Of a stretch of 9,864 bases of DNA, positions 7,105-9,864 are shown one piece after another (position 1 is the stretch's first letter; each line of letters opens with the position of its first letter). The stretch spans positions 1 to 9,864 of IMG/VR virus record IMGVR_UViG_2663763339_000002. One strand, given 5' to 3'. This DNA comes from a virus. Lineage: Duplodnaviria; Heunggongvirae; Uroviricota; Caudoviricetes. Under the pieces are notes generated by a model. It was given only the letters and a program-made list of their open reading frames with translations, had not been told where the DNA came from and searched no databases. The position numbers and the translations under genes are program-made.

Positions 7105-7156
7105 GGTGTATTTCACCTCTGCTTTTTAATTTACTCACTGGTGAAATACACTTCAA
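7105..7156. promoter_or_regulatory. Divergent control region: two inverted operator-like copies with a candidate minus-strand promoter
   Basis: GGTGTATTTCACC (7105-7117) and GGTGAAATACAC (7140-7151) are reverse complements and each is internally symmetric (GGTG-N5-CACC). Candidate minus-strand -35 TTGAAG (7151-7156) and -10 TAAATT (7128-7133) with a 17-bp spacer covering the second site. Confidence 0.45.
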
Positions 7157-7217
7157 GCCTTTTTTTATCATTTTTTTTGCGTATACTGACATACACCAAT
7201 TTTTAGGAGATCCAGAA

Positions 7218-7397
7218 ATGGCAACTGGTGCAAAGAACGCAAAATCACAAATGACAACTGTCAGAATCCCACATGAAGTAATGGATGATATTGAGCAACT
7301 TAAAGAACCTGGCGAAAGTACCGCTGGTTTTTTAGTTACTGCCGCAAAAGGCGAGATCAAACGCCGCCAGCGTCGCAAGGCCAAAGAGCAGGAGTAA
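7218..7397 (+). CDS. Small ribbon-helix-helix-like DNA-binding protein, 59 aa (candidate element regulator)
   Basis: ATG 7218-7220 preceded by AGGAGA; TTVRIPHEVMDDIEQL fits a beta-strand-then-helix pattern; basic tail KRRQRRKAKEQE. Fold is inferred, not searched. Confidence 0.6.
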   Translation: MATGAKNAKSQMTTVRIPHEVMDDIEQLKEPGESTAGFLVTAAKGEIKRRQRRKAKEQE

Positions 7398-7773: not shown

Positions 7774-7856
7774 TGATATAATTCCCCTGCACTGATCCAA
7801 TTTTTTCGCAGCAGGTTAATTGTTCGCAAGGGCGCTCCGGTAACGGGGCGCTTTTT
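7774..7856 (+). ncRNA. Candidate small RNA unit: extended -10 promoter plus intrinsic terminator with no ORF between
   Basis: TGaTATAAT at 7774-7782; hairpin GCGCTCC-GGTAAC-GGGGCGC (7832-7851) followed by TTTTT; no ATG or GTG between. Convergent with the 3' end of alpA. Confidence 0.25.
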
Positions 7857-7886
7857 GTTATGTGCATCGCGTTACGCCTCACACCA

Positions 7887-8093
7887 TTACGCAGCCGTTC
7901 CGCGCGCTTCTTCCTCGCGCTCTTTCAGCCAGGCCAGCACTTCATCTTCATACCAGCCAACACGACGCAGACCGATTTTGAAGCCTTTCGGGAATTTTCC
8001 GGCGTTGATCATGTCCTGTAGCGAACTGTCTGCCTTGATGCGCAGAATATTTTTTACTTCCTGACGGGTAAGTATTTTTCTGATTGTTTCCAC
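7887..8093 (-). CDS. alpA: AlpA-family phage transcriptional regulator, 68 aa
   Basis: GTG start at 8091-8093 (no in-frame ATG covers the HTH). FPKGFKIGLRRVGWYEDEVLAWL matches the AlpA signature recalled from E. coli CP4-57 AlpA (VGWIEAEIDEWL). Confidence 0.8.
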   Translation of the reverse strand: METIRKILTRQEVKNILRIKADSSLQDMINAGKFPKGFKIGLRRVGWYEDEVLAWLKEREEEARGTAA

Positions 8094-8162
8094 TATGTTT
8101 TACCTCGTTAATCCGGCGTATTCCGGTGATAAATACGGTAAAACAGGGCAGGGCGGGAAAAA

Positions 8163-8194
8163 CAGTACCCACCGTTTTAAAACGGTACTCACTG
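8163..8194. promoter_or_regulatory. Palindromic operator-like site upstream of alpA
   Basis: Perfect 16-bp palindrome ACCGTTTTAAAACGGT (8171-8186) inside a larger imperfect dyad CAGTAC...GTACTCACTG. Confidence 0.4.
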
Positions 8195-8228
8195 TTTTTT
8201 ATCTCATTGATTACGCTTTTCTTTCTGC

Positions 8229-8258
8229 AAAAAAATAGCGACCGCAAGGGGCCGCTAT
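8229..8258 (-). terminator. Intrinsic terminator after the 80-aa ORF
   Basis: Minus-strand RNA forms an AUAGCGGCC...GGUCGCUAU hairpin followed by U7 (plus-strand A7 at 8229-8235), 5 nt after the stop at 8264-8266. Confidence 0.5.
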
Positions 8259-8263
8259 TGTGA

Positions 8264-8506
8264 TTACCGTTTCCACTTCTTAGGCCGCCCACCGCATTTA
8301 AGGCTGGTGGGTCTCAGCACCTTGTCGATGCTTTCAGCCAGGTTTTTCGATGCGCCACGTGAGCGCAAAAAACTGACTACCTCGTGTTTTGTGGGGGCTG
8401 TTGATTTGTCTTCCGGATCGTATGTTGACCAGAATTCACGATTTGCCATTAACGCCAGTTGCAGCCCTTCGCCGCAAGCAGGGGATACCTTTTCATTGAA
8501 AAACAC
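8264..8506 (-). CDS. Hypothetical protein, 80 aa, between integrase and alpA; basic C-terminus GRPKKWKR
   Basis: GTG start at 8504-8506 with AAGGAG 8 nt upstream (alternative ATG at 8447-8449 has no RBS); own terminator downstream. Confidence 0.5.
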   Translation of the reverse strand: MFFNEKVSPACGEGLQLALMANREFWSTYDPEDKSTAPTKHEVVSFLRSRGASKNLAESIDKVLRPTSLKCGGRPKKWKR

Positions 8507-8622
8507 CTGGATAGCTCCTTGAATTTCATGATTTGGGTGACTCCTCTCTGTATTGGGTGGGTTGTGGCGATTATACGATGGTTTAGCATGGTTTGCATCG
8601 CTTTTACTGGTTTTTTGTACAG

Positions 8623-9864
8623 TTACACGGCACGGATACCCCTTTTACCACTGGCTATGGTCACTCCGGTAGCTGCGGCCTCTACAAATTCCCCCCACCA
8701 GCGCATAAGCACCACGCGCTTTTCCAGGTAGTTACTTCGGTTATATGCTCGCCTTACCTCGTTTGTGTCCACGTGTGCGAGTGCGGCCTCGATTACGTCC
8801 GGCTCGAATCCTTCCTCGTTCGCTGCTGTACTGAATATGGCGCGTAATCCGTGAGACACCAGCACACCAGCGTAACCCATCCGGCGCAATGCGGCGTTAG
8901 CGGTCTGGCTGCTCATTGGCAGCATCGGGTTTTTAAGGCTGGGAAAAACGTGTTCCCTGTGTGCGCTGATTGGCTTCATGGTTTCCAGTACAGCCATAGC
9001 CTGACCGCAAAGGGGGATCACGTGGTCACGGCGCATCTTCATGCGTCCGGCTGGAATCGTCCATGTTTCGGCATCGAGATCTATTTCTTCCCAGCGTGCG
9101 GCGGCTGCTTCGGCTGGGCGTGCTACGGTCAGCAGTTGCCACTCAATCAGCAATCTGGTTTGCCGTTCTATGCTGGCGACCGATAAATCGTGCATTAGCT
9201 GCGGTAGCTGTTCCGGTCGGATGGTTGGCATGTGCTTTTTGGTGGGTGAGGGGAATGCCTTGCGGACGTTCGCGGCGGTGTTGATGTCAATCAGCCCACT
9301 GTTGGCAGCAAAATCCATCACTTCATTGATGCGTTGTAAAACGCGTTTCAGGGTTTCCAGGTTGCCGCGTGCTTTAATGGGTGTGAGTATCTCAACAAAG
9401 CGGCGAGCTGTGAGGGTATCTATTGGCGTGTTTCCGATGTACGGGAATACGTATTTTTCCAGGGATCGCCAGATATCCTTAATCGTGTTGTAAGCCAGAT
9501 TCTGGCCTTTTTTCATCTCGTACCAGTCCGAGGCAACTTTTTCGAACGTGTTGCCCTTTTTCCGACTCTCTGCTTCACGTTTCCGGCGTTCGTGGTCCTG
9601 TGGGTCAACTCCCTTCGCTATGAGTGACCTGTATTCATTCCGTCGTTCTCTGGCATCGGACAGGGAAACATCATTCAGCGATCCGAGGCTGATGATAGTC
9701 CGTTTTTTATCTGCCGGGCGGTAGTACGTAAAACGCCAGATTTTTGATCCGGAGGGTTTCACCAGAAGAAATAATCCTCCGCCATCCTGCAGGGTGTATT
9801 CCTTTTCCCCTGGTCGTGCGTTTTTGATCTCCGTAATAGTTAGTGGGGTGGTTTTTCGTGCCAT
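8623..9864 (-). CDS. int: Tyrosine site-specific integrase, P4 / CP4-57 IntA family, 413 aa
   Basis: N-terminus MARKTTPLTITEIKNARPGEKEYTLQDGGGLFLLVKPSGSKIWRFTYY is the typical arm-binding domain of P4-type integrases; catalytic-region motifs (TVARP, HGLRAIF, RAYNRSNY). ATG is the last 3 nt of the window. Confidence 0.9.
   Translation of the reverse strand: MARKTTPLTITEIKNARPGEKEYTLQDGGGLFLLVKPSGSKIWRFTYYRPADKKRTIISLGSLNDVSLSDARERRNEYRSLIAKGVDPQDHERRKREAESRKKGNTFEKVASDWYEMKKGQNLAYNTIKDIWRSLEKYVFPYIGNTPIDTLTARRFVEILTPIKARGNLETLKRVLQRINEVMDFAANSGLIDINTAANVRKAFPSPTKKHMPTIRPEQLPQLMHDLSVASIERQTRLLIEWQLLTVARPAEAAAARWEEIDLDAETWTIPAGRMKMRRDHVIPLCGQAMAVLETMKPISAHREHVFPSLKNPMLPMSSQTANAALRRMGYAGVLVSHGLRAIFSTAANEEGFEPDVIEAALAHVDTNEVRRAYNRSNYLEKRVVLMRWWGEFVEAAATGVTIASGKRGIRAV

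Follow-up and report, generated by a model that had tools for sequence, protein, structure and literature searches.

A conserved array of two tandem 20-bp dyads upstream of alpA in an Escherichia coli phage satellite, and its reading as a putative operator

The stretch of DNA considered here, called the window throughout, is 9,864 nucleotides long and belongs to a phage satellite of E. coli, of the PICI or capsid-forming PICI kind, that is integrated at tRNA-Pro. When an 801-bp query surrounding the element described below was compared with complete genomes it proved 100% identical to E. coli RM8082, in which the island lies between tRNA-Pro/yejM and yejO. The genes and signals closest to the element are as follows.

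8623-9864, minus strand: int, a tyrosine integrase with an arm-binding domain that targets tRNA-Pro; first gene of the module
8264-8506, minus strand: orf80, a conserved gene of 80 aa with a basic GGRPKKW tail
8227-8259 (stem 8234-8259, then T7), minus strand: T1, a strong intrinsic terminator (-14.3 kcal/mol) that ends the int-orf80 unit
8111-8145, minus strand: block 2, with a candidate weak -10 (TACCGT, 8140-8135), a predicted start at about 8128 and the motif CCGG-N6-CCGG (8113-8126)
7887-8093 (start GTG, 8093-8091), minus strand: alpA, 68 aa, a Phage_AlpA winged-helix regulator (PF05930, E = 4.5e-8)
7218-7397, plus strand: ylcI (YlcI/YnfO, RHH-like), about 0.8 kb from the element

The PHROG annotation of alpA is 'excisionase and transcriptional regulator'. 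Further on, the window encodes Icd-like proteins, DUF4222, a RepA-type helicase, SSB, a fusion of ClpP-protease and major capsid protein, and DUF1441. Right after the alpA stop there is a GC-rich hairpin (7828-7855) with a run of T when read on the plus strand and of A when read on the minus; this would be the terminator of the convergent plus-strand ylcI unit.

The small gene orf80 is found constantly between int and alpA and falls into no Pfam, PHROG or NCBIfam family. Its named homologues come from E. coli only, and a search of 5.8 billion proteins returned 13 clusters. A structural model of the product has a three-helix fold (pLDDT 77), and its basic tail, GGRPKKW(K)R, is disordered and similar to an AT-hook. 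The gene may be comparable to the small int-adjacent gene that is needed for excision in Vibrio PICMIs (PMC10803314). One record attributed to Cooperia oncophora (P0013) contains a 90-aa protein in which orf80 (N-terminal half) is fused to AlpA (C-terminal half), and this is a deletion or assembly chimera of the present island in a contaminated nematode assembly.

The role of alpA as the master switch of Gram-negative PICIs has been established in several studies (PMC6092414; 10.1101/2022.09.08.507074; PMC11773190; PMC10803314). In EcCICFT073 and EcCIMP1 the helper phage induces the alpA promoter region independently of SOS, and AlpA boosts its own promoter; in EcCIMP1 the helper was seen to induce this region even without AlpA (PMC6092414, PMC11773190). 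For EcCIEDL933, alpA was shown to be required for induction and transfer by the helper phage (bioRxiv 10.1101/2022.09.08.507074). These papers on PICI alpA activation, which date from 2018 to 2025, neither name the phage factor nor map a cis-element (PMC6092414, PMC11773190, PMC10803314, 10.1101/2022.09.08.507074).

Between T1 and alpA a perfect 16-bp palindrome, ACCGTTTTAAAACGGT, occupies positions 8171-8186, and both the sequence and the coordinates are exactly those given in the original prediction, which had been made from the letters of the DNA. It is the sole perfect palindrome of at least 12 bp in the window. It lies 78-93 bp upstream of the alpA start, where about 80-95 bp had been proposed, and 48 bp on its other side separate it from the T1 stem, which bears out its placing just downstream of the terminator of the int/80-aa unit. 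When the 9.9-kb window was shuffled 1000 times with its dinucleotides preserved, 15.6% of the shuffles contained a perfect palindrome of 16 bp or more, so that the 16-mer by itself is weak evidence and not significant. The larger imperfect dyad within which the 16-mer had been said to lie was also recovered. An inverted-repeat search returned 22-nt arms (8158-8179 and 8178-8199) that are 82% complementary, and the 42-bp dyad that they form is the top dyad of the window in a 21+21 scan and was equalled in 1 of 300 shuffles. It is this larger imperfect dyad, and not the 16-mer, that is the significant object. The same 40 bp can be described as a tandem direct repeat of two 20-bp units, each AAAACRG-N6-CYGTTTT, whose meeting point is the perfect 16-mer.

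8158-8199: extended dyad with A5 and T5-6 ends, 17/21 complementary, with the 16-mer at its centre
8159-8178: unit A, AAAACAGTACCCACCGTTTT (AAAACAG-TACCCA-CCGTTTT), an imperfect 20-bp dyad on the side nearer alpA, with hardly any variation
8179-8198: unit B, AAAACGGTACTCACTGTTTT (AAAACGG-TACTCA-CTGTTTT), the distal 20-bp dyad, more variable among relatives

Counted by hand, units A and B are identical at 17 of 20 positions. The array thus described has four half-sites about 10 bp, or about one helical turn, apart. It holds four ACNGT cores, spaced 9, 11 and 9 bp from one another; the core is self-complementary, which makes its orientation ambiguous, and its flanks alternate. The array is the only cluster of at least three ACNGT cores in the 18.8-kb locus L001, which comprises the island, its flanks and both island ends, and no second copy was found in the island, whether at the att sites, in the promoter region of icd/ylcI or at any other place. 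The A5, T4A4 and T6 tracts of the array are spaced about 20 bp apart, and GC at the element is 35% as against 50% for the window.

The absence of obvious sigma-70 hexamers upstream of alpA, which formed part of the original prediction, was confirmed in two ways. A consensus scan of 7800-8700 returned 0 sites, and a PWM scan from T1 to the alpA ribosome-binding site gave a best score of 2.2, whereas the best scores of random 221-bp pieces of the window have a median of 5.9. The one promoter candidate that is conserved, at the same position, in both of the clades compared below is TTTTTC-16-TACCGT in block 2, which is weak (PWM score 2-3). The start predicted from it would place the centre of unit A at about -40.5 and that of unit B at about -60.5, a geometry that is void if this weak candidate is wrong. 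Block 2 also contains CCGG-N6-CCGG, which has a 10-bp periodicity and lies, on the minus strand, directly upstream of the alpA Shine-Dalgarno sequence. A YCGG-N6-YCGG motif precedes the alpA Shine-Dalgarno sequence in most related loci of Pectobacterium, Edwardsiella, Erwinia, Brenneria, Pantoea and Escherichia sp. (L069, L071-L080), in which the remaining upstream sequence looks unrelated to that of the window. The motif may serve AlpA as a site of autoregulation, or it may form a hairpin in the 5'-UTR (-6 kcal/mol).

A related int-orf80-alpA region is carried by 442 complete E. coli genomes. In 294 of these it belongs to a clade that is about 70% identical to the window and includes ATCC 25922 and O157/O55 strains; it appears to represent the EcCIEDL933-type islands of the O157/O55 strains. 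A further 49 IMG/VR loci were fetched with the block 2 pattern, a retrieval that was blind to the array, and pooling these with the earlier loci gave 22 distinct versions of the region. Identity between the two clades was distributed as follows.

8158-8203, array: 39-40 of 46 positions identical (85-87%)
8111-8145, block 2: 32 of 35 identical
8146-8157, spacer between array and block 2: 4 of 12 identical
8204-8233, upstream flank: 13 of 30 identical
terminator T1: 11 of 30 identical; the 70% clade has a different, non-homologous hairpin here
alpA third codon positions: 43 of 69 identical (62%)

The array is therefore conserved between the clades above the neutral level, at 85-87% as against 33-69% for neutral sites, with the spacer, the flank and the terminator at 33-43%. 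Conservation extends to the layout of the region. While the sequence of the 12-bp spacer between array and block 2 is free, its length is the same in all 22 variants, as is the half-site spacing within each 20-bp unit; the half-sites of unit A are themselves invariant, and free variation within each unit is limited to the central 3-4 nt. The distal half-site of unit B is variable among relatives, and the whole of unit B is precisely deleted in 2 of 60 loci (L027 and L059), an exact loss of the kind expected from recombination between direct repeats. These two IMG/VR loci retain a single dyad together with apparently intact alpA, orf80 and int, and so constitute a natural one-unit test.

The central palindrome fares differently in this comparison. 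In the commoner clade (EcCIEDL933-like, ATCC 25922, O157/O55) the corresponding 16-mer reads ACCGTTTTTAAACGGT and is imperfect, and the gap at its centre, TA in the window, is TT in that clade and a single base in L009. The 16-mer is thus perfect only in the clade of the window, and is imperfect or gap-shortened in the 70% clade and in L009; inverted half-sites at a fixed spacing are a property of each 20-bp unit and not of the 16-mer. The symmetry and the gap of the 16-mer vary and the spacing of the units does not; what is conserved is therefore two 20-bp dyads whose distance to block 2 stays constant. The original prediction that the palindrome is a likely regulator site is upheld in part, in that a conserved, non-random cis-element is present, but the perfect 16-mer is not its conserved unit.

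Which genes travel with the array is also informative. Among the 49 array-bearing loci int and alpA are present in all 49 and orf80 in 48, compared with 31 for ylcI, 15 for the RepA helicase (repA) and 7 for a capsid gene. The array is co-inherited with int-orf80-alpA, and the replication and capsid modules are swapped around it; it is common to classical and capsid-forming islands that have the same int-orf80-alpA module. From the sequences compared, it appears to be lineage-specific, that is, particular to the tRNA-Pro int-orf80-alpA module. In L009 (E. coli 2013C-3033) a 400-bp insertion parts the array from T1 and orf80, and the array is still next to alpA. The insertion (about 1880-2290) holds four direct repeats (iterons), ATGTTGTCTCAAAA, and a long AT-rich stretch, and is origin-like.

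We suggest that the array is a putative protein-binding operator that controls an activator-dependent alpA promoter, and give this reading a probability of roughly 55%. The 40-bp array would consist of two tandem 20-bp dyads directly upstream of an alpA promoter that is intrinsically very weak. A sequence-specific DNA-binding protein would occupy the units, probably as two dimers or as four co-operative monomers on one face of the helix. Bound at about -40 and -60, it may bring RNA polymerase to the promoter, which lacks a usable -35, or stabilise it there, such that alpA would be silent until the binder appears. The binder would be AlpA, for which positive autoregulation is documented, or an inducer from the helper phage. 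This reading is favoured by the conservation of the array above synonymous sites, by the repetition of dyads on one helical face, and by the fixed distance to block 2, which holds the sole weak promoter match common to both clades. The constancy of the spacer and of the half-site spacing suggests that geometry is constrained at the level of DNA, while the replacement of T1 by an unrelated hairpin, during which the array kept its sequence, points to selection on sequence and not on folding alone. A regulator site combined with activator dependence is also the most economical explanation because the published alpA promoters need a helper factor and AlpA. Activator dependence had been proposed at the outset, and the lack of a detectable sigma-70 promoter and the published PICI genetics both agree with it; the array would accordingly act in activation and not in repression. 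The idea of a dimeric regulator likewise survives in altered form, as each 20-bp unit would fit a dimer and a dimer centred on the 16-mer is less likely, given that its gap and symmetry vary.

As to the identity of the binder, a rough division within the operator reading would be two chances in five for AlpA, just over one in three for a helper factor and one in four for Orf80 or a host factor. Parsimony favours AlpA, since it is encoded in cis, is co-inherited with the array and has documented autoactivation, although if it is the binder the absence of a second array means that it has no other site of such kind in the island. There is room for a helper factor because the array is lineage-specific whereas CCGG-N6-CCGG recurs upstream of alpA across genera, and because AlpA proteins of similar identity, those of the CFT073 type, have unrelated upstream regions. 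Orf80, with its predicted three-helix fold, its basic GGRPKKW tail and its lack of a family, may be regarded as a further candidate. The possibility that the array is specifically a helper-sensing operator bound by the helper inducer, with AlpA autoregulation occurring through CCGG-N6-CCGG instead, is one we consider rather unlikely.

Several observations count against the operator reading in general. The array has no second copy in the island, and no similar motif was found in the helper phage HK106. AlpA proteins that are 71-73% identical (CFT073 type) are preceded by completely different upstream regions, and the 2 of 60 loci that lack unit B show that the full array is not indispensable. 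In addition, conserved arms with free positions in an internal loop would fit an RNA hairpin equally well, and this applies to most of the pattern.

The last point bears on the main rival, in which the array, read on the alpA-sense strand, is an attenuator or a further intrinsic terminator weaker than T1 that would back up T1 and insulate alpA from int-orf80 read-through. Here int-orf80 is taken to be constitutively expressed, and for induction transcription would have to be antiterminated or to begin downstream of the hairpin. A terminator scan flags the dyad, which is correctly oriented for this role and follows T1 at a distance of 48 bp. RNA from the minus strand is able to form a 17-pair hairpin followed by U5, with a folding energy of -17 kcal/mol when the A/U tracts are included and -11 for the core (z about -3). 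In each clade folding is stronger on the minus strand than on the plus strand (-18 versus -13 in L002, -15.7 versus -10.5 in L009), because G-U pairs become C-A mismatches on the other strand. Across 13 variants 95.5% of cells are paired, and there is one compensatory pair, G-U to U-A. Covariation can, on the other hand, hardly be assessed, as 12 of the 17 pairs never vary; the remaining pairs comprise one two-sided change, three with mismatches only and one one-sided change (G-U/A-U), and the covariation score was reached by 5 of 500 shuffles. The stem is AU/GU-rich (about 6 G-C among its 17 pairs) and has a 2x2 internal loop, and its short U-tract of 5 is followed by CCC; the adjacent T1 reaches -14.3 kcal/mol and ends in U7. 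Variants place mismatches in the stem (A-G in L056, G-A in L003), and half of the stem is deleted in two loci. T1, the true terminator, has diverged completely, and the array has kept its sequence. A terminator would also leave the fixed-length spacer to block 2 unexplained, and a candidate promoter upstream of the hairpin is present in one clade only. Termination as the function of the array seems to us unlikely on balance; a dual role as operator and terminator is possible.

The array might instead serve a nucleoid protein (H-NS/Hha, Fis or IHF) as a stretch of curved AT-rich DNA, in silencing or in an architectural role that would keep alpA off, but we think this improbable. Control of alpA genes by H-NS and Hha has been reported in Shewanella and E. 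coli K-12, for CP4So and CP4-57 (PMC7379572), and the low GC of the element relative to the window and its phased A5, T4A4 and T6 tracts would suit such a site. The conservation, base by base, of half-sites that contain C and G (CAG, CCG, CGG, CTG) is, however, not needed for this, the dyad and tandem layout is more specific than curvature demands, and no convincing match to a Fis or IHF consensus was seen by eye in the array sequence. Very much less probable is binding by the RHH protein of the island, YlcI/YnfO, which had been put forward as a protein to test. An RHH dimer would fit a dyad and the gene is nearby, and nothing else speaks for it; 18 of the 49 loci with the array lack ylcI, the gene is not annotated in L003, L004, L008 and L009, and its own promoter region has GTG-N7-CAC repeats that vary from island to island while the array stays constant. 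In the divergent ylcI/icd-like promoter of the window (7106-7200) these repeats are GGTGTATTTCACC and GGTGAAATACACT, with a possible third, GACATACACC; in other islands they read GTGTAAGACAC, GTGTCGGACAC, GTGCATCGCAC and others, and the set looks like immunity-type operators for the YlcI/YnfO RHH protein. It is equally hard to credit that the array has no function and arose as a palindrome by chance or was left behind, as a neutral remnant, by a tandem duplication. Perfect 16-mers do occur in 16% of shuffles, the core ACCGTTT-N1-2-AAACGGT is found in many unrelated viral contigs and is common by chance in viral metagenomes, and unit B can be lost; against this stand an extended dyad reached by 1 of 300 shuffles, 85-87% identity where neutral sites have 33-69%, and the fixed spacing.

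Read as an operator, the array offers a concrete and testable candidate for the DNA site at which a helper phage switches on alpA, and hence an entry point to how Gram-negative satellites sense their helpers. It could be used for pull-down of the inducer, for reporter mutagenesis and for prediction of helper range. Were the array to be specifically helper-sensing, it would be a ready bait with which to identify the inducer, and the helper specificity of each lineage would be explained by it. If it is only a back-up terminator it is an ordinary feature.

Among known islands EcCICFT073, EcCIMP1 and EcCIEDL933 resemble the window in gene order (int ... alpA), in the family of the master regulator and in the kind of island. 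The upstream region of CFT073-type alpA differs in that its sequence is unrelated to the array and in that it contains a recognisable TTGACT-N18-TATTCT promoter and other repeats. In the CFT073-type loci L011-L015 these include direct repeats of GGAGCCAATTT, the palindrome TTGGTTCCTAATTGG, and CCCATTATTTAAAGTTAGAAG in 2-4 copies.

With regard to other classes of element, Rfam gave no match for the array region, no related motif was found in the phage collection, and the sites of LexA (CTG-N10-CAG), CRP (GTGA-N6-TCAC) and lambda CII (TTGC-N6-TTGC) were not found in 8094-8263. The array shares with Rho-independent terminators of the tandem or bidirectional type an A-tract, a hairpin and a U-tract, a position after the end of a transcription unit, and better folding of the sense strand. 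It differs from them in its AU/GU-rich stem, its internal loop, its short U-tract, its conserved sequence and its fixed distance to a promoter block.

Like 186 Apl, lambda Xis, P2 Cox and P4 Vis, AlpA is one of a broad class of small winged-helix proteins. Winged-helix recombination directionality factors such as 186 Apl bind co-operatively to several weak sites one turn apart and are often transcription regulators too (PMC7498355). Their arrays have a one-turn periodicity like that of the four ACNGT cores, but consist of co-oriented direct repeats and are duplicated at att, whereas in the present array the flanks alternate and the 18.8-kb locus holds no att array. The distal end of unit B (8190-8202) has an 11-nt identity, CTGTTTTTTAT, with the Xis X2/Fis site region of lambda (27659-27671; L067, 160-172). 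Both copies are embedded in 20-bp direct repeats, and HK106 encodes an Xis of the lambda/HK022 type; the identity is probably due to chance.

The late promoters PLL and Psid of P4 carry an Ogr/Delta-responsive dyad, TGT-N12-ACA, near -55, to which an activator encoded by the helper binds, and lie upstream of the alpA homologue vis. This Ogr/Delta site is absent from both strands of 8094-8263, and the array differs further from the P4 arrangement in that the helpers of these islands are lambdoid and not P2-like and in that it has two tandem dyads in place of one. Nevertheless, within the context of the P2/P4 satellites (PMC10111431), the P4 late promoters are the closest functional analogue of the array, being helper-responsive and activator-dependent, lacking a good -35, and having a dyad some 50-55 bp upstream of the presumed start.
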